Shown here in pieces: positions 6,691 to 22,266 of a stretch of 26,989 nt of DNA. The DNA is taken from UHGV virus genome UHGV-0205323. The stretch is one strand, 5' to 3'. Position numbers and translations under genes: made by a program. The notes below the pieces were generated by a model. The model was given only the letters and a program-made list of their open reading frames with translations. It was not told where the DNA came from and searched no databases. This DNA is from a virus. Positions within the stretch are counted from its first letter, which is position 1. Each line of letters starts with the position of its first letter.

Positions 6691-6752
6691 TGACCAGGGA
6701 AGCAGCAGATAGCAACCAACAATCCTCGCACTCGCGGGGATTTCTTTTATCT

Positions 6753-6780
6753 GAACTCGCTACGGCGAGTTTTGTTTTAT
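6753..6780 (+). terminator. putative rho-independent terminator
   Basis: AACTCGC / GCGAGTT stem with TACG loop followed by TTGTTTTAT. Confidence 0.5.
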
Positions 6781-6791
6781 GGAGATGATAA

Positions 6792-6959
6792 ATGCACTTC
6801 CGAGTTACAGGTGAATGGAATGGAGAACCATTCAACAGAGTTATCGAAGCCGAGAACATCAGCGACTGCTATGACCACTGGATGCTGTGGGCGCAGATAG
6901 CACATGCAGACGTAACCAATATTCGAATTGAAGAACTGAAAGAACACCAAGCCGCCTGA
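6792..6959 (+). CDS. small ORF (55 aa), hypothetical
   Basis: GGAGATGA RBS upstream of ATG 6792; flanked by terminator-like hairpins on both sides; translated by hand (MHFRVTGEWNGEPF...). Confidence 0.4.
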   Translation: MHFRVTGEWNGEPFNRVIEAENISDCYDHWMLWAQIAHADVTNIRIEELKEHQAA

Positions 6960-6973
6960 TGGCGGTTTTTTAT
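6951..6973 (+). terminator. putative rho-independent terminator overlapping stop of the 55-aa ORF
   Basis: GCCGCC / GGCGG(T) stem with TGAT loop followed by TTTTTTAT. Confidence 0.55.
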
Positions 6974-7016
6974 TGCCTGATTTGCAGGTTCGATTCCCTA
7001 TTCGGAGATAGCACTC

Positions 7017-7217
7017 ATGCAACACGAACTACAGCCTGATTCACTGGTTGATTTGAAATTCATCATGGCCGATACTGGCTTCGGTAAAACCTTCATCTAC
7101 GACCGGATTAAGTCCGGCGACCTGCCAAAAGCCAAAGTTATCCACGGGCGAGCAAGATGGTTATATCGTGACCATTGTGAATTCAAAAATAAGCTCTTAA
7201 GCCGCGCCAATGGGTAA
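7017..7217 (+). CDS. xis: excisionase-like DNA-binding protein (HTH_17/AlpA-type)
   Basis: 66-aa ORF immediately upstream of the integrase; pattern ...DRIKSGDLPKAKVIHGRARWLYRD... resembles the excisionase/AlpA winged-helix family. Confidence 0.6.
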   Translation: MQHELQPDSLVDLKFIMADTGFGKTFIYDRIKSGDLPKAKVIHGRARWLYRDHCEFKNKLLSRANG

Positions 7218-7466
7218 AATAGCGGGTAAAATATTTTTCACATCTAAAAAACACCATTCTAATCAATCCCCTGCTGCGTCAAGTAGATGTCTGCAGGGGA
7301 CACCATTTATCAGTTCGCTCCCATCCGTACCAGTCCGCAAAATCCCCTGAATATCAAGCCTTCCGTAGATTCACAGTTCGTAATGGTTCGCGTCAGATCG
7401 TTGACAGCCGCACACCATGACGGGTAAAAAGTGGATAAAATAATTTTACCCACCGGATTTTTACCC
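7212..7466. repeat. cluster of GGGTAAAAW 9-mers in both orientations spanning the xis stop to the int start; candidate Int/Xis binding sites or attP arm sites
   Basis: GGGTAAAAT at 7212-7220 and 7224-7232; GGGTAAAAA 7422-7430; GGATAAAAT 7433-7441; inverted ATTTTACCC 7443-7451 and TTTTTACCC 7458-7466; an 8-bp inverted repeat TCCCCTGC/GCAGGGGA at 7267-7274 and 7293-7300 lies between the two groups. Confidence 0.55.
7401..7430 (+). promoter_or_regulatory. candidate int promoter overlapped by the GGGTAAAAW repeats
   Basis: Consensus -35 TTGACA at 7401-7406; weak -10 TAAAAA at 7425-7430 (18-bp spacer); no experimental support. Confidence 0.3.
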
Positions 7467-8624
7467 ATGCTCACTGTTAAGCAGATTGAAGCAGCAAAGC
7501 CGAAAGAAAAACCATACCGCCTTCTCGATGGTAATGGCCTGTACCTTTATGTCCCTGTATCAGGGAAAAAGGTATGGCAGCTTCGCTACAAGATTGACGG
7601 TAAGGAGAAAATCCTGACCGTCGGAAAATATCCGCTTATGACTTTGCAGGAGGCAAGGGATAAGGCATGGACTGCGAGGAAAGACATCTCGGCTGGCATC
7701 GATCCGGTAAAGGCGAAAAAGGCTTCGTCTAACAACAATTCCTTTTGTGCGATTTACAAGGAATGGTACGAGCACAAGAAGCAAGTCTGGTCAGTAGGCT
7801 ATGCAACTGAACTTGCCAAAATGTTTGATGACGACATTTTACCCATCATCGGCGGTCTTGAGATTCAGGATATTGAGCCGATGCAACTGTTGGAAGTAAT
7901 CCGCAGATTTGAAGATCGCGGTGCAATGGAGCGAGCCAACAAAGCACGCAGAAGATGCGGCGAGGTTTTCCGTTACGCTATTGTCACCGGAAGGGCTAAA
8001 TATAACCCGGCACCTGACCTTGCTGACGCCATGAAGGGATACCGCAAGAAGAACTTCCCGTTTCTTCCTGCAGACCAGATCCCGGCATTCAACAAAGCAC
8101 TGGCAACATTTTCAGGAAGTATCGTATCGCTCATTGCGACCAAAGTTTTACGCTACACAGCCCTAAGAACGAAAGAGCTTCGTTCCATGCAATGGAAGAA
8201 CGTCGATTTTGAAAACAGGATTATCACTATCGACGCCAGTGTGATGAAGGGACGCAAAATTCATGTGGTTCCGATGTCGGGCCAGGTAGTTGAACTTCTC
8301 ACTACGCTAAGCTCCATCACTAAACCAGTATCAGAGTTTGTTTTTGCCGGGCGCAACGATAAGAAGAAGCCAATCTGCGAGAACGCGGTATTGCTTGTGA
8401 TCAAACAAATCGGCTATGAGGGTCTGGAAAGCGGTCACGGATTCAGGCATGAATTCAGCACAATTATGAACGAGCACGAATGGCCTGCTGATGCTATTGA
8501 AGTGCAACTGGCACATGCCAACGGCGGATCTGTACGCGGGATTTACAACCATGCTCAGTATCTGGATAAGCGCAGAGAAATGATGCAGTGGTGGGCGGAT
8601 TGGCTTGATGAAAAGGTGGAGTGA
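7467..8624 (+). CDS. int: tyrosine integrase, P4-type (DUF4102 N-terminal domain)
   Basis: N-terminus MLTVKQIEAAKPKEKPYRLLDGNGLYLYV...WQLRY typical of P4/CP4-57-like integrases; C-terminal catalytic region with HGFRH and conserved R/H/Y context; start placed at ATG 7467 rather than the track's 7431. Confidence 0.85.
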   Translation: MLTVKQIEAAKPKEKPYRLLDGNGLYLYVPVSGKKVWQLRYKIDGKEKILTVGKYPLMTLQEARDKAWTARKDISAGIDPVKAKKASSNNNSFCAIYKEWYEHKKQVWSVGYATELAKMFDDDILPIIGGLEIQDIEPMQLLEVIRRFEDRGAMERANKARRRCGEVFRYAIVTGRAKYNPAPDLADAMKGYRKKNFPFLPADQIPAFNKALATFSGSIVSLIATKVLRYTALRTKELRSMQWKNVDFENRIITIDASVMKGRKIHVVPMSGQVVELLTTLSSITKPVSEFVFAGRNDKKKPICENAVLLVIKQIGYEGLESGHGFRHEFSTIMNEHEWPADAIEVQLAHANGGSVRGIYNHAQYLDKRREMMQWWADWLDEKVE

Positions 8625-8643
8625 TCCACCTTGACTATCGAAT

Positions 8644-8700
8644 GGCACAAAGCCTTGCAATCCAGTGCAAAGCTTTGTGTGCCTCAGTTTTGTCTCATTA
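8644..8700 (+). terminator. putative terminator / structured element downstream of int
   Basis: Long imperfect hairpin GGCACAAAGCCTTGCA / TGCAAAGCTTTGTGTGCC followed by T-rich TCAGTTTTGTCTCATT; a separate perfect 8-bp hairpin AAGGTGGA-GTGA-TCCACCTT (8613-8632) spans the int stop codon. Confidence 0.45.
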
Positions 8701-8751
8701 TTAAAATAATTCCGTCAACCTCACTACCTTCATAATATTGAATTTTTTTAA

Positions 8752-10413
8752 TTACCTCCATGCAACAATTGTAACTGGTATAGTTACTGACTGACTTGTA
8801 ACTATAAGTCCTGTTGTTGTATCAACAATTCTTATTGCAAACCCGGTAGAATTATAAGTGTCGGCGTATACTTGATATTTAAAAGGAGATGGTACTGCAC
8901 CTGAATGAAAATCAGGATGTATAATTACTTTTGAGGCATAAAAACCAATTGTAACTATACCTCCCGGATTAACTGTTGTTGTCGATATATAATCCGGCGA
9001 GTTGTGTATCTTATCGTTAACCCTTATTATCTTACCATTTCCAATCATGCTAAATATAGTAAATACACCATTTGGGTCATTAAGATAAACTGTTGCATTA
9101 TCTTCTACTCTTATATGACCTGCTGTTCCGTCATCATTAAGCAAGACAGGGTTGTTAATGTAAGTTACTGAATTTCCTCGACATCTAAAATGATAAAAAT
9201 TAGGTCCGTTTGGATTAACTCTATTGAAGTGTGGATTGTTATATGTGACTACTGAAGATGATGCTACCAGTATTGATTGTGTTCCTGCTGTCATTTTTCC
9301 ATCTGTAGAATCCATCTCAAAATTTGGTGAGTCGAAAACAACCCCGGTAGAGTTTGTATCAATATGATGGAAGTAAGAGTTATAAGACCCATCATGCCCC
9401 ATATTAAAATTAATCCACTTAGACCCCTTTACACCACGAAGTCTTAGTGCAAATGCTTTGAAGTTTGCCGCATAACAGTTTATATATGTATTTTCAATTA
9501 TCTGGCCGTTACTCGAAATATCAAAACCAATTCTATTCCCATTTGCTCTGATGTTTGTAAACACATTGGAGAAGTCAGCAGGACCAGCTTTATAACCAAC
9601 ATCAAAGTAGTCTAAATACATATTAGAGAAAGTGCAGTTTACTGTCTTATTTACTCCGGTAAGATCAAGACCAGAACCAGATCCAATTGGTTGACCTCCG
9701 CTAACGGCACCCTCAACAATTAAACCTATATTTGCTATTACTGTTCCTCTTAATTCATTTCCAGATGCAGATATTCCTGAAATCCCGCTAGGTGTTTTTA
9801 TGCTTGATGTAGATAGAGAATCACCAATTAATCCAAAATTATTCTTAAGTGAAATGTTACCTTCCCATTCCCCTGGAGGAACCTTAAGGGTAATGGGAAT
9901 GCTACCAGATGCTATATAATCATTTACCGGGGAAAGATCATTACCGATAACACCAAATCCTCTTATATCTCCTAATCTTCTATAATCAGTAATAGAAATA
10001 AAATCCTGAACGGACTCCCCAGTATCGTAACAAACTAAAGATGCTCCAATATTAGACGCAAGCCTTTTTTCAAGCTGATCCGGGTCGTACTTCAGTACAT
10101 TCGGAAAATAAAACTGCTGCGCACCGTACGCATCATAAACAGCCATAGAATGGCCTTGCACGGTAACGAATTTGGCAATCTGTCCGTTATATACAGGGTA
10201 ACCAGCAGCGTTAATGATGATTGGCTGGGATACAGGAACGTGAGAGCCGTCTTCGTTCTCCACATAAACCTGAATCTGGTTTTCAGGATTTACCGGGTCA
10301 GTGTCAATTTTACCGATATAAATTTTGCCATTGGCTACGGCTTTAAAAGAACGAGCCATAGTGAAGAGTTGCGAAGGCATCGATACGATCACATTGGCTG
10401 TAATGTCTGTCAT
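8752..10413 (-). CDS. tailspike protein: P22 gp9-like N-terminal head-binding domain fused to a divergent receptor-binding domain
   Basis: N-terminal ~110 aa ([11 protein letters not shown]...[22 protein letters not shown]...[13 protein letters not shown]...VLKYDPDQ) closely matches the P22 tailspike head-binding domain as recalled; the remainder is Gly/Asn/Ser/Thr-rich and unlike P22; last gene before the int-proximal end. Confidence 0.85.
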
Positions 10414-10513: not shown

Positions 10514-11404
10514 TCAGTAGTTATGTACTGAAGGAGGTAATTCTTTATTCTTAAGTCTCATCCATGCGGAAAGATTCGCTGGTCCGTCTGGCTCATTAAT
10601 ATCAACATCTCGTGTGTGGTTTATTAAAACGTCTCTCGCCATTCCGATAACATACGAGAACTCATGACCGTAGTCGTAGCATCTTCCGGAATAGTTCGAT
10701 TGAATTTGTTTTAACGCCGGATACAGTTCGCGGAATAATGCCTGTGAACGGTTGGCATAATCCCATAACCATACAAGACTGTTTGCTTCTTTTGCAGAAA
10801 GCTCGTTGGTCTTCTTCTCTTGTTTGCCGATAAACTCGCCTTCAAGCACTACCCTGTGGATGTACTCTACGGCCAGCGGGATTTGTTCAATTGAAAGTTC
10901 ATCAATGCTGTCAATACCAAAACGCTGATGAACCATATTGTATGCATCGTCATAGCGAAGTCCTTTCTTTCCTACCAGCATGTTTACTGCATCGCGTAGC
11001 GGTGTGCGTTCAGCTACTGAAGTTTTACCGCCAATAGCCTTCCTCTCTTGTGTGGTAGTAACCATTGCGTCATATGCACGGATAACCTTCAGCGCAAAGG
11101 CTGCGCTAATCCACATGGCGTAGGAGTAAACAAGCTCCTTGCACACGTAGGTTCCACCATATCTACCTTTCTTAGAAAGGACGGGATTCTTATTCTGCAT
11201 ATCCGCAGAATTAAAAATTTCATTAATCAATTCAATAGTTTCATTTCTACGCATGAAGAAAGCTGGCTGATGTTTTTCCTCCTTTCCAGACGCTACATGA
11301 AGGTCATTAAGCGAGTAACGACCCTCTGAATCCATATGAATCTTGACGTCAGAAATGATGATGCTATTAGTGCAATTTACAGTTGACTTTGCTAAGCTTG
11401 ACAT
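10514..11404 (-). CDS. ant: antirepressor Ant with KilA-N-type N-terminal domain
   Basis: 296-aa ORF downstream of arc on the same strand; N-terminal KilA-N-like pattern ([36 protein letters not shown]); position matches the P22 immI arc-ant arrangement. Confidence 0.65.
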
Positions 11405-11470
11405 ATCAATAATACCTCGTAAGTTTTGTTGATACCGAAGCCCTGACTGTTACAGCAGTTGGGGCTTCAA
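11377..11470 (+). ncRNA. candidate sar-like antisense RNA opposite the arc-ant junction and ant RBS
   Basis: Plus-strand terminator hairpin GAAGCCC...GGGCTTC followed by AACTTTTT (11434-11470) antisense to arc/ant; candidate promoter -35 TTGACG 11343-11348 with -10 TATTAG 11365-11370 inside the ant 5' end; 5' end uncertain. Confidence 0.3.
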
Positions 11471-11640
11471 CTTTTTGCTAGATTACCTTTAGAACTATCC
11501 CGCCTTAAACTATCCACTAACCGCATTACCATCTCGGTATTTATTGAGCGACCATTTTCTTTCGCTGACTTCTCGATTGCTAACTTAACCTCTAATGGGA
11601 TGCGCAAAGGGTACTTTGGTGCGTCTGACTTGACTATCAT
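11467..11640 (-). CDS. arc: Arc-like ribbon-helix-helix repressor
   Basis: 57-aa protein from ATG 11640 with GGAGGT RBS; PKYPLRIPLEVKLAIEKSAKENGRSINTEMVMRLVDSL parallels P22 Arc (PQFNLRWPREVLDLVRKVAEENGRSVNSEIYQRVMESF, recalled). Confidence 0.7.
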   Translation of the reverse strand: MIVKSDAPKYPLRIPLEVKLAIEKSAKENGRSINTEMVMRLVDSLRRDSSKGNLAKS

Positions 11641-11658
11641 ATTACCTCCAATCAACTT

Positions 11659-11728: not shown

Positions 11729-11965
11729 ATGTCACGCGAAGAGCCGCAAATAAATATCAGGATTTCCAAAGAGTTAAAGGCAAAGGTTAAAGCCAGGGCG
11801 CAACATAACAAGCGTTCCATGAATGCTGAAATAATACAGATTATCGAAGATGCTGTTTGTGGTAGATCGCTTAATAGCAATGAATTTGCTCAGAAAGAGG
11901 CTGACAAATTCAGGGATGCGCTACTTGAAACACTGAAAACCATGTATGGTAAGGATGAAAAATAA
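11729..11965 (+). CDS. mnt: Mnt-like ribbon-helix-helix repressor
   Basis: N-terminus MSREEPQINIRISKELKAKVKARAQHNKRSMNAEIIQIIEDAV parallels P22 Mnt (ARDDPHFNFRMPMEVREKLKFRAEANGRSMNSELLQIV, recalled); divergent from arc-ant. Confidence 0.75.
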   Translation: MSREEPQINIRISKELKAKVKARAQHNKRSMNAEIIQIIEDAVCGRSLNSNEFAQKEADKFRDALLETLKTMYGKDEK

Positions 11966-12501
11966 TGCTGCACACAATTCATTTCTTATGCCCCGTTAAC
12001 ACTGCCACTGTTGGGCAACTTCAGAACCACTGTCTCACCGCATTATCTCAAGGCGCAACTGAATTAAATATCCATATATCAAGTCAGGGAGGGGAAACTG
12101 CCGCTGGTTTTACTGCGTATAACTTTCTTAAGTCACTCCCTGTTACCGTTAGAACTCACAACATAAGCAATGTTGAATCCATAGCTAATATCGTTTTCCT
12201 GGCTGGCTCAGAACGTTTCGCAAACCCATTATCAAGATTCCTGTTACATCCTCTATTATGGGGCTTTGCCACCCCAGCCGCCGACCATGCCAGATTGAGA
12301 GAGTACGGGAAATGCCTCGATAACGATCTTGATCGCTTCGTTGAGACGTTCAATATCGACATCGGAACCCATATTAGGTGGGCATCCCTGATAGCAGACT
12401 CGACCATTTTGGATGCTAACAAGGCTCTTGAGCATGGCATAATTAATTCCATAAAAACTGCAAGGCTGGTATCCAATCAGGCAAACTGGTGGGTTGTTTG
12501 A
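11965..12501 (+). CDS. ClpP-fold serine peptidase-like protein, translationally coupled to mnt
   Basis: ATG overlaps the mnt stop (TAATG); sequence aligns by eye to the E. coli ClpP core (IHISSQGGETAAGFTAYNFL vs [20 protein letters not shown]; Ser in SNVESIANI at the GQAASMGA position; His in FLLHPL at the MIHQP position; C-terminal LEHGIINSI vs VEYGLVDSI). Confidence 0.6.
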   Translation: MLHTIHFLCPVNTATVGQLQNHCLTALSQGATELNIHISSQGGETAAGFTAYNFLKSLPVTVRTHNISNVESIANIVFLAGSERFANPLSRFLLHPLLWGFATPAADHARLREYGKCLDNDLDRFVETFNIDIGTHIRWASLIADSTILDANKALEHGIINSIKTARLVSNQANWWVV

Positions 12502-12808: not shown

Positions 12809-13240
12809 TTAATCTTGCTTTGTAGACGGTATAAGGGATGCGTTTGCCTCTTTTGGCTTCAAGGTATACATCCCACCATTAAATGGATCAACAGCAAGCC
12901 AACCAATTAACCCACCAAACACAAGGTTTCCACCAATATACCAACCATTAGCATTGGCTTTGATTGGCAGGGTAACTGGTTCGTACCCATCCTTCTCCAT
13001 AGTGATCTGGTAGCTCTTTTTGCCAAAATAACTACCATCTGACTTGGCAAGAGTTACTCCTTGCGGGGTCTTACCTTGCGCAACAATCACGCCTGATTCG
13101 TCTTTTACCTTAAAGCTCGCACCGGAAGGATTGCTGTTCACTTGCACAAGCTGTGTTTCGTCACCAACAATAGTTGCGCACCCAGATAACATGATAGCGC
13201 CAGCAACGACGCTAATAATCCTCTTCATATCAATTTCCAT
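12809..13240 (-). CDS. lipoprotein (signal peptide with lipobox LSGC); candidate superinfection-exclusion or surface-modifying moron
   Basis: N-terminus MKRIISVVAGAIMLSG-C has a type II signal peptide and lipobox; Gly-rich C-terminal segment WYIGGNLVFGGLIGWLAVDPFNGGMY; followed by its own terminator; alternative start ATG 13228. Confidence 0.6.
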   Translation of the reverse strand: MEIDMKRIISVVAGAIMLSGCATIVGDETQLVQVNSNPSGASFKVKDESGVIVAQGKTPQGVTLAKSDGSYFGKKSYQITMEKDGYEPVTLPIKANANGWYIGGNLVFGGLIGWLAVDPFNGGMYTLKPKEANASLIPSTKQD

Positions 13241-20970: not shown

Positions 20971-22266
20971 TCACGCAGTCTGGTTAGGCAGACCAACGCC
21001 AATTGCCTCTGGTCGTACAGCACATGCTGAATACCACACAGCAATACGGCACTTACCAGACAGAGTGTTGATATCACCCTGCGTTGCGAAGATGCCGTTA
21101 ACACCAATACCTGGAATGCTGAAGGAAGACGTTTTCATGCCAGCAAACAGTTCATGGGTTACCGGGATCGGCTGAGAAAGCAGACGGATTGAGTCATCAG
21201 CCCAGAACACGTTAGCGGTGGTTGTTGCCACGTTCAGAACGTTTACCGGAGTGGCATCAGCAAGAGAGGTGTTTACGTTAGCGTAAGCCTTCTCTTCTTT
21301 TGTCAATGAAGCGTCATCAAGCGCAATCGGCTTCGGCGTGATTTCGATGTGAGTACCATCGATCACACGGGTGATTGAGAAAGTCGCGTCATCAGTCAGC
21401 ACGTTCTTCGCCATCTGAGACAGGAATTTCACACCAGTGAAGCTGATTTTGTCGCCGCGCTTAAATCCGGTGGTGGAGGATACGGTCACCGTTGCAACAC
21501 GGTTGTCGACGTTCTCTTTGTTACCATCGGTATCAAGGGTGTATGCCTGCGGCTTAAACTTCTGCGCACCAGAAACAGTTACACCAGTAGCGGTTGACTT
21601 GGTAACCGCCGGAAGTTTCGGTGAGCGAAGAATTTCATCAAAGCCAGCAATCTGACGCTGAATAGTACCGTTGCGATACGCTTCTTCAGGAACGCGCCCA
21701 AAGATGTCACCATCTACCAGGTTGCGGCCTGCTTTGCGGTAATCGTCAGGGTTCAGGAAGTAACTGATGCCCATATCGCGGTTTAGCTCACGGGAGAACA
21801 TCAGGCGCTCTGCATCAGACACAAAATCCCAGCCAGACAGGCCAGTAGATGGACCAATTGCGCGGGTATCGTGAACAACAAGCGAGCCCATTTCAGTTGC
21901 CTGTTTGGCAATCGCTGACTCAATGTTATTCGCCAGTTTTTTGGCGGATGCCTGGATGCGGCGACGGTAAGAACGCTCATCACGCAGGTCATCTGCACGA
22001 AGCTCGAAGAAATCGTTATCCGGATCGCCCATGTTGCATTTCACGGAGAGTTCCAGAATCCCGGTTGCGTTGCCAGTTAAATCCCAGCCAGTCTGGGTTG
22101 GCGCTTCCTGCTCAACAGGCATCCACACGGTGTTGCTTGAACGTTGCATGGATTCTGCCGGAGGGGTGTATTTTGTCACTTTGGACGCCATTGGCGTCAG
22201 GTTCTGGACGGTTTCGATGATTTCATCCAGAGCATACGTGACCAGTTGACCTTCATTTAATGCCAT
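20971..22266 (-). CDS. major coat protein, P22 gp5-like
   Basis: 431-aa protein; long stretches match the P22 coat protein as recalled (MALNEGQ...NLTPMA...[21 protein letters not shown], ...[13 protein letters not shown] at the C-terminus). Confidence 0.9.

Follow-up and report, generated by a model that had tools for sequence, protein, structure and literature searches.

The experimentally characterized version of the recombination module considered here belongs to KplE1 (CPS-53), a cryptic prophage of E. coli K-12, in which the IntS integrase, TorI as the recombination directionality factor (RDF) and an argW core are accompanied by a promoter, PintS, that overlaps the arm sites of attL, and in which expression of int and of the RDF is uncoupled, an arrangement described as an "unusual organization" (PMC2951348). 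In Kapi1, Sf6, HK620, and KplE1, attP is located between int and xis, so that these two genes lie at opposite ends of the prophage (PMC8787464). The layout and attP position of the HK620/Sf6-type module are already known. The Salmonella phage P22 (NC_002371) is organized in the lambda-like order xis-int-attP-gtrABC-tailspike, with its core (21300-21322) just 3' of int. Here, we analyzed a 26,989-nucleotide stretch of viral DNA (hereafter, the window) and conclude with high confidence that it belongs to a temperate P22-like (Lederbergvirus-type) phage of E. coli that carries the KplE1/HK620/Sf6/CUS-3 module in attP form. The window resembles P22 in virion architecture, in the immI region (arc, ant, and sar RNA), and in the head-binding domain of the tailspike; however, its gene order differs and it has no core 3' of int.

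The ORF list and homology searches placed an RDF gene of the TorI/HkaC type (xis, 66 aa) at 7017-7217 (+) and, together with Pfam, an IntS-type tyrosine integrase gene (int, 385 aa) at 7467-8624 (+), while the ORF list and Pfam identified a 553-aa tailspike gene at 8752-10413 (-). The xis product matched PDB entry 1Z4H ("Tor inhibition protein," TorI) over 66/66 residues (E = 6.6e-43), and its RefSeq homologue is named torI. The int product contained the Pfam domains Arm-DNA-bind_3 (8.8e-26), Phage_int_M (1.8e-27), and Phage_integrase (1.1e-38). An in-frame GTG at 7431, upstream of the ATG at 7467, is an alternative start that is probably unused; the homologues use the 385-aa ATG form, as does the gene called on the source scaffold. 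At the nucleotide level, window positions 6908-8695, int included, were 96-97% identical to HK620, Sf6, and HK633, and this homology assigns the recombination module to the KplE1/HK620/Sf6/CUS-3 type (IntS integrase, TorI RDF, argW target).

Among the described phages, HK620 (AF335538) has a xis(hkaC)-attP-int module that is alike at 96.4% nucleotide identity, and shares the core and the arm repeats annotated there, the promoters pI and for excision, and the hairpin after int; it likewise has a virion of the P22 type and a head-binding tailspike convergent on int. However, in HK620 a gene for an "O-antigen modification protein" separates tailspike and int, and the HK620 tailspike receptor-binding domain is unrelated in sequence to that of the window. 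The module of the Shigella phage Sf6 (AF547987) is 97.3% identical, its attP core lies between gene 17/18 and int, and its tailspike also converges on int, although the oac O-acetylase gene occupies the int-tailspike slot and the tailspike has another specificity domain. CUS-3, a prophage of E. coli K1 RS218 (CP000711), shares int, an attL core at the equivalent of 7291, and a convergent tailspike; unlike the window, it is integrated, with argW replacing xis upstream of the core, and its slot is occupied by neuO. KplE1, a defective remnant, lacks virion genes and a tailspike, whereas the element in the window seems to possess a complete late region of the P22 kind. The virion-derived genomes of the Escherichia phages Bas106 (CurroJimenez_Bas106), Louie, Dewey, and Kapi1 have the order xis-attP-int-tailspike seen in the window, but their tailspike receptor-binding domains differ from the window's. 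In Bas106, which was checked for this feature, there is no recognizable conversion cassette between int and tailspike, and the slot holds one annotated 99-bp ORF.

The attP core, CTGCAGGGGACACCAT, is at 7291-7306 (+), i.e., upstream of int, between the end of xis (7217) and the start of int (7467). In alignments, the attP cores annotated in HK620 and Sf6, like the attL core of CUS-3, fall on these positions, and the attL and attR ends of an integrated relative overlap there (see below). The first 15 nt of the core are the 3' end (last 15 nt) of the argW tRNA-Arg(CCT), with one A/G difference in the comparator genome. The core was present once in the window, even with three mismatches allowed. 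The 7291-7306 core is the site of strand exchange. Arm-type repeats flank the core on both sides. A repeat search found two direct copies of GGGTAAAAT in the P arm (7212-7232, +), which are arm-type integrase sites according to the HK620 attP annotation (repeat_region), and, in the P' arm (7422-7466), GGGTAAAAA at 7422-7430 (+) with inverted copies at 7443-7451 and 7458-7466 (-), which likewise correspond to HK620 attP repeat_regions; a further copy occurs inside int (7836-7844). All six copies of the motif GGGTAAAAW in the 27-kb window fell within 7212-7844 (chance expectation, 0.31). These repeats are predicted integrase-binding sites, with the binding of IntS, TorI, and IHF transferred from KplE1/HK620. 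Homology to KplE1 and HK620 also suggests that the int promoter, PintS, is at 7401-7430 (+), with a -35 element TTGACA (7401-7406) and a -10 element TAAAAA (7425-7430). The spacing read from the sequence is TTGACA-N18-TAAAAA, and the promoter overlaps the first site of the P' set. PintS of KplE1 has been described as TTGACA / TAaAAa (PMC2951348), the same as the window sequence, and the window promoter also matches the "prophage excision" promoter annotated in HK620; its use here is presumed by analogy with both. When HK620 feature coordinates were moved to the window through pairwise alignment (offset 3911), a predicted pI, the cII-activated "phage integration" promoter, fell upstream of xis at 6972-7010 (+; cII site, 6973-6985), where it would have the function that the HK620 annotators assigned to it.

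A sequence match also revealed, at 6982-6997 (+) and inside the annotated pI promoter, an exact 16-nt copy of positions 46-61 (T-arm) of the argW tRNA-Arg, TTGCAGGTTCGATTCC; measured between their starts, it is 309 bp left of the core. The fragment occurs at equal spacing in HK620, Sf6, Bas106, the 0H26 circle, and IMG/VR attP contigs, and it was kept in 11/11 of the HK620/Sf6-type modules examined; it was missing from the module of Klebsiella phage Chronis. It is conceivable, though we consider it a long shot, that the fragment is no silent relic, being instead either the mark of a longer attP of tRNA origin in an ancestor, later divided by insertion of the segment with torI and the P arm, or a secondary site of pairing or recombination. 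In the integrated state, it would make a second direct repeat with argW spanning the whole prophage.

Close relatives are integrated into argW, with int placed at the attL end and the RDF gene at the attR end. The chromosome of E. coli WCHEC050613 has the order dsdC, torI ... tailspike, intS, tRNA-Arg, yfdC; window positions 6718-7306 correspond to the attR end of this prophage and 7291-8611 to its attL end, and the overlap is the 16-bp core. A Logan contig from SRR5470038 matched the window from exactly 7291 to 10272 at 96.5% identity, unbroken through int, gap, and tailspike, and beyond int it continued into tRNA-Arg(CCT) and the host genes yfdC, mlaA, and fadL. Among 5426 complete E. coli genomes, 3224 had a match, with xis-attP-int contiguous in only 17; all of the non-contiguous matches listed begin at window position 7291 beside a tRNA-Arg. 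Since the core is upstream of int, integration parts xis (attR, beside dsdC) from int (attL, beside argW). After integration, int would rely on the promoter of its own that overlaps the P' arm sites, and the 3' ends of int and tailspike stay neighbors inside the prophage.

A preliminary description of this DNA had placed the int and tailspike ends at opposite prophage termini and had read their contiguity as evidence of an attP arrangement or of an assembly join. That premise is true only for P22 itself, not for the module of the window, as both integrated relatives keep the two genes adjacent: in WCHEC050613 they are convergent and only 4 bp apart though integrated, and in the SRR5470038 prophage they are separated by a 126-bp gap with the same hairpins, next to a tailspike that is 93% identical. 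Since int and tailspike are adjacent in integrated prophages, their contiguity is uninformative on integration state. The conclusion that the window is in the attP arrangement nevertheless stands, on other grounds: it is the contiguity of xis, core, and int (7218-7466) that shows the attP state, and the interval 7200-7470, named in the same description as a second place to examine, was well chosen. Were the window organized like P22 proper, where attP is 3' of int, between int and gtrA, and the tailspike/gtr and int ends are opposite termini, the int-tailspike junction would represent prophage ends joined in attP or by the assembly. We regard this as exceedingly improbable, because the annotated and demonstrated core at 7291-7306 is outside the int-tailspike gap, 8625-8751 has neither an att core nor tRNA-like sequence, and integrated prophages are colinear with the window through int, a matching gap, and tailspike. 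A degenerate att site hidden in the gap was also considered and rejected, given that no second core match appeared with three mismatches and that the integrated relatives are colinear.

The gap between int and tailspike (127 bp, 8625-8751, with two hairpins) is thus an internal module boundary and not a prophage end. The ORF list and the sequence agree with the earlier statement that a rightward xis-int arm meets leftward late genes over a 127-bp gap holding only hairpins. No ORF of at least 40 aa was listed wholly inside 8625-8751, the sole ORF overlapping it being 8331-8660 (-), antisense to int; gtr, acyltransferase, and other conversion genes were absent between int and tailspike in the ORF list, and neither an att core nor host DNA was found within the gap. 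A tRNA scan of the whole window returned zero tRNAs; the part of argW present as att core, its last 15 nt, is too short for calling. Rfam at the gathering threshold gave nothing in 6900-8800, its only match being the sar RNA in immI.

Hairpin 1 (8613-8632), found by folding and kept in relatives, has an 8-bp stem and a GTGA loop, AAGGTGGA-gtga-TCCACCTT, and the stop codon of int falls in the loop. As UUUUCAUC comes after it on the minus strand, the hairpin is a candidate terminator of leftward late transcription; it is kept in the integrated relative (the SRR5470038 Logan contig) and, with one change, in HK620. Hairpin 2 (8644-8683), an imperfect stem of ~17 bp identified by folding, as an inverted repeat, and from HK620 annotation, is followed on the plus strand by UCAGUUUUGU, and the HK620 "terminator for prophage excision transcript" maps to ~8651-8682, i.e., to this hairpin. 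The predicted fold of a 161-nt stretch with both hairpins was better than 200/200 shuffles (z = -3.9). A consensus scan for promoters and terminators did not report either gap hairpin as a terminator, and their putative terminator role follows from the HK620 annotation and from U-rich tails read by eye. The hairpins probably insulate the two convergent transcripts, of int and of tailspike, from one another.

In relatives, the gap serves as a slot for O-antigen-modifying cargo, and it is vacant here. Among 80 IMG/VR loci with an Int at least 98% identical, 66 had a convergent tailspike, and in 28 of these 66 the int-tailspike gap was at most 250 bp; 19 of the 28 were verified attL forms. The slots of other relatives carried gtrABC (GtrA/GtrB/GtrII), AT3 or AT3-SGNH acyltransferases, or polymerase-like genes. 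An empty slot is, therefore, common among relatives, and the observation made at the outset that no gtrABC-like cassette lies between tailspike and int is correct, though it describes a common state. Taken together, the order runs from the predicted pI through xis (TorI), the P arm, the 16-bp core, and the P' arm with PintS to int (IntS), the two hairpins, and the convergent tailspike, and no observation contradicted this layout.

As for the origin of the DNA, the comparison covered window bases 1-20413, and these were 100% identical to an ENA metagenome scaffold, scaffold_361, of 36.7 kb. The scaffold is 36,690 bp long and its source sample is ENA ERZ28620881, BioSample SAMN09781782. The 27.3 kb retrieved from this scaffold contained phage genes only; the remaining ~9.4 kb, past the window end, lies outside the comparison, so host DNA is possible there. 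When the large-terminase protein of the window was searched for, it was found in 1367 blocks, and the contigs returned were only long chromosomal ones. In an independent assembly of a second sample, a contig crossed the core from the xis side, indicating that the attP junction is no one-off. Could the junction be an assembly error, in which an ordinary single prophage had its attR-left and attL-right sequences misjoined through their shared core? The window does derive from a metagenome scaffold, and the assembly graph of the second sample branches exactly at the core. However, the shared core is 16 bp, which is presumably shorter than usual assembly k-mers, the contig of the second sample crosses it by a full 55-mer, so attP-spanning k-mers exist, and the virion-derived genomes of HK620, Sf6, and Bas106 have continuous xis-core-int sequence at 96-97% identity. 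We therefore judge a misjoin to be very improbable. A contig break at 7291 in sample ERZ1034899 was considered as proof of integration and rejected, as the attL of another IntS-type prophage sharing at least 55 nt to the right of the core could branch there.

The window may stem from virion DNA, from a circle that was excised or replicating, or from a tandem lysogen, free phage and tandem lysogen being indistinguishable by sequence alone. A tandem double lysogen or a concatemer in a bacterial chromosome would create the same xis-core-int junction, and such cases appear to exist: in E. coli GPEC79-13-647, torI-attP-intS is within the chromosome and the same terminase protein is found at both ends of a 42-kb stretch, which indicates tandem copies, and several of the 17 contiguous E. 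coli cases sit in chromosome records. Nevertheless, contiguous cases compatible with tandem copies are rare (17/3224 genomes), others among them belong to circular extrachromosomal records of 39 kb or to genomes derived from virions, and the 27.3 kb retrieved from the 36.7-kb source scaffold is without host genes. A tandem origin thus seems unlikely, although it deserves some weight. This alternative bears on provenance only and leaves the layout unchanged.

The genes beyond the module agree with a P22-like phage. The source scaffold gave matches to P22_gp7, Inj_translocase, Phage_P22_gp16, P22_Tail-4, and Phage_stabilise; matches to P22_portal and P22_CoatProtein came solely from further contigs carrying the window's terminase; the sar RNA (RF00262) in immI scored 67.4 bits. 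In virion genes and immI region alike, the element is P22-like (Lederbergvirus). Residues 1-113 of the tailspike (10075-10413) form a P22-type Head_binding domain (Pfam E = 6.7e-67), and PDB sequence matches of the tailspike covered the N-terminus only. In the AlphaFold2 model, 10-residue blocks after residue 140 had pLDDT values of ~78-97, with one low block near residues 501-510, and Foldseek matched the model to phage tailspikes at 10-25% identity. The model suggests that the receptor-binding domain is a beta-helix of about residues 140-553. Structure prediction gave only a generic beta-helix tailspike fold, which does not point to a particular substrate. The region encoding the receptor-binding domain has a GC content of 34-38% vs. 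45-49% in its flanks, and the domain had no match in the isolated-phage collection searched and no PDB sequence match past the N-terminus.

The record thus gains a metagenome-assembled phage genome in attP form, whose conversion slot is empty and whose tailspike has a specificity domain absent from the isolated-phage collection searched. For phages with the IntS/TorI (HK620/Sf6) module, integration state is to be read at the xis-int junction, not at the int-tailspike junction. Among P22-like phages, where attP lies with respect to int is set by the integrase module that is carried, and imposing the P22 map on every P22-like genome would misplace the prophage ends.

The ORF list and the sequence confirmed the anatomy given in the preliminary description, i.e., a rightward xis-int arm that meets a leftward tailspike gene over a 127-bp gap with hairpins (8625-8751). 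The TorI-type recombination directionality factor gene, xis, is a 66-aa ORF at 7017-7217 (+), and its product aligned over its full length with TorI (PDB 1Z4H; E = 6.6e-43). The IntS-type integrase gene, int (+), ends at 8624; its earliest in-frame start is a GTG at 7431, and the ATG at 7467, which gives a 385-aa product, is the start used in homologues and in the gene call on the source scaffold (385 aa). Int carries Arm-DNA-bind_3, Phage_int_M and Phage_integrase domains (Pfam). The tailspike is a 553-aa ORF at 8752-10413 (-), with the P22 Head_binding domain (Pfam) at aa 1-113. From the contiguity of int and tailspike, it had been argued that the sequence is in the attP arrangement, on the premise that the two genes occupy opposite prophage ends. 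The premise is true of P22, where the tailspike is followed by gtrCBA, the attP core (3' of int), int, and xis. In the IntS/TorI module of the window, unlike P22, the core is 5' of int, so integration parts xis from int and leaves int beside the tailspike, and the int-tailspike junction is therefore uninformative on integration state. The conclusion itself holds, on the evidence of xis-core-int contiguity at 7218-7466, which falls within 7200-7470, a region originally proposed as a secondary check. Thus, the feature is real and was correctly observed, but the inference was built on the wrong phage's map. The layout has been published: in Kapi1, Sf6, HK620, and KplE1, attP is between int and xis, placing these genes at opposite prophage ends (PMC8787464), and the window is a textbook case of a known module in a known arrangement.

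The segment at 6908-8695 is 96-97% identical to HK620, Sf6, HK633, and other phages. In the HK620 and Sf6 records, a 16-bp attP core is annotated between a small xis-like gene (hkaC or gene 18) and int, and the CUS-3 prophage record opens with the attL core, after which comes int. The annotated core aligned to CTGCAGGGGACACCAT (7291-7306), in the interval from xis to int; a second copy was not found anywhere in the window, allowing up to 3 mismatches. GGGTAAAAW occurs six times in the 27-kb window, always within 7212-7844 (two left of the core, three right of it, and one within int; chance expectation, 0.31), and their positions coincide exactly with the attP repeats annotated in HK620. A TTGACA-N18-TAAAAA sequence at 7401-7430, part of which coincides with the first P' repeat, agrees with the description of the int promoter, PintS, of KplE1. 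A 46-aa ORF at 7210-7350 (+), the counterpart of HK620 hkaB and Sf6 gene 17, spans the P-arm repeats and the core; since integration would cut through it, it is unlikely to be a real gene. The window also holds, at 6982-6997, an exact 16-nt copy of positions 46-61 (T-arm) of the tRNA-Arg gene argW, TTGCAGGTTCGATTCC, which in attL is the host sequence immediately before the core. This copy is upstream of xis, within the region annotated in HK620 as the cII-activated pI promoter, and is conserved, 309 bp to the left of the core, in 11 of 11 HK620/Sf6-type modules examined, including HK620, Sf6, Bas106, a 39-kb E. coli circle, IMG/VR contigs in attP form, and an integrated prophage on its attR side. 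It was not found in the related module of Klebsiella phage Chronis.

Integrated relatives display the separation at the core. E. coli WCHEC050613 carries, in chromosomal order, dsdC, torI, early genes, late genes, tailspike, intS, tRNA-Arg, and yfdC, with only 4 bp between intS and tailspike. When the window was compared with this locus by BLAST, the match broke at the core: 6718-7306 fell at the attR end and 7291-8611 at the attL end, a distance of 38 kb. These two segments share 16 bp, the duplicated core, which agrees with the last 15 nt of argW except for one A/G difference. The core copies in WCHEC050613 differ at one base (GACGCCA in argW/attL vs. GACACCA in attR and phage attP), which would put the effective crossover to the right of that base, within roughly the final 4 nt of the core. 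Homology to Logan contig SRR5470038, the tailspike of which is 93% identical to that of the window, begins exactly at 7291 and is unbroken (96.5%) to 10272, taking in int, the same gap with its two hairpins, and the tailspike; int is flanked on its other side by tRNA-Arg(CCT), yfdC, mlaA, and fadL. Among 5426 complete E. coli genomes, the module was matched in 3224, with xis, attP, and int contiguous in just 17; the non-contiguous matches, among those listed, all begin at 7291 and adjoin a tRNA-Arg gene.

The following steps have been shown for relatives, and we infer them for the window phage. In the circular or attP form, transcription from an upstream promoter could continue through xis and attP into int; a cII-dependent pI is annotated in HK620 at the position equal to 6972-7010. 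IntS would exchange strands inside the core common to phage and argW, and the phage copy would regenerate the tRNA's 3' end. Once integrated, int would rely on PintS, which by homology is covered by sites for IntS and TorI and in KplE1 is negatively autoregulated, while xis, at the far prophage end, would be expressed with the early-left operon upon induction.

Contiguity of xis, core, and int could also arise from a chimeric assembly join or from a tandem lysogen. Window positions 1-20413 are 100% identical to a 36,690-bp ENA metagenome scaffold (ERZ28620881 PASO19-1_SAMN09781782_METAG-scaffold_361), with the window starting 296 bp from one scaffold end; the 27.3 kb of scaffold sequence covered by the analysis is phage throughout. 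In a second, independent assembly (ERZ1034899), a 99.9%-identical phage is present as two contigs, NODE_519 and NODE_3240 (coverages, 7.7x and 5.6x), one of which crosses the core from the xis side and stops at 7345 while the other begins at 7291. Since their overlap is exactly 55 nt (7291-7345) and starts with the core's first base, attP-spanning k-mers occur in this second sample and its assembly graph branches exactly at the core, making a chimeric join unlikely. The branch is consistent with attP and attL coexisting in that sample, but is not proof, for this 99.9%-identical phage. A tandem lysogen may account for the contiguity, as torI-attP-intS lies between apparently tandem prophage copies in one E. 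coli chromosome, GPEC79-13-647; other contiguous cases are 39-kb circular records. The GPEC79-13-647 locus (NZ_CM142761.1 1416088-1458071), with torI-attP-intS contiguous in the chromosome and the same large-terminase protein at both ends of a 42-kb stretch, seems to be either an array of tandem prophages or assembled concatemeric DNA; its tailspike is interrupted by an IS3.

The receptor-binding part of the tailspike (8752-10060, aa ~120-553) has a GC content of 34-38%, vs. 45-49% in the flanks. A tblastn search of 50,697 phage records gave no match to it, and complete E. coli genomes had none at the nucleotide level; identity to its best relatives is 93% (E. coli prophage contig), then 74%, 61%, and 48% (Morganella), and in Enterobacter and Lelliottia a homologous domain is joined to other N-termini. 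Structure prediction gave, with high confidence, a right-handed beta-helix as in other tailspikes, and the model (block pLDDT mostly >80) resembles those of Sf6, P22, Det7, and CBA120 at 10-25% identity. Beyond it, the antisense RNA sar (11406-11472, +; Rfam RF00262, 67.4 bits) is flanked by ant (10514-11404, -) and arc (11467-11655, -), an arrangement shared with the immI region of P22. Two accessory genes, encoding a ClpP-fold protease-like protein (11965-12501, +; Pfam CLP_protease, 4.3e-12) and a small lipoprotein-like protein (12809-13240, -; weak PEGA match), sit between immI and the ejection-protein genes, where relatives hold different genes.

The int-tailspike gap region folds better than 200 of 200 shuffles (z = -3.9), with hairpins at 8613-8632, the loop of which contains the int stop codon, and at 8644-8683. 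Both probably terminate the convergent int and late transcripts, a role that we infer since a consensus scan called neither as a terminator; HK620 carries a terminator annotation for the second. The reported lack of a conversion gene between int and tailspike was borne out, as the 127-bp gap has no ORF. In relatives, this interval serves as a cargo slot, holding oac in Sf6, an O-antigen modification gene in HK620, and neuO in CUS-3, whereas that of the window is empty. We surveyed 80 IMG/VR loci with Int at least 98% identical, 66 of which have a convergent head-binding tailspike. Since the gap is ≤250 bp in 28 of these 66 (471 bp in one and >900 bp in 37), an empty slot is common; 19 of the 28 were verified as attL forms, having the argW T-arm upstream. 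Nine ORFs sampled from larger gaps scored as GtrA/GtrB/GtrII-type cassettes (from a ~2.9-kb gap), AT3 acyltransferases, AT3-SGNH proteins, or an O-antigen-polymerase-like protein. According to the Kapi1 study, O-antigen modification is still possible without a recognizable conversion gene (PMC8787464).
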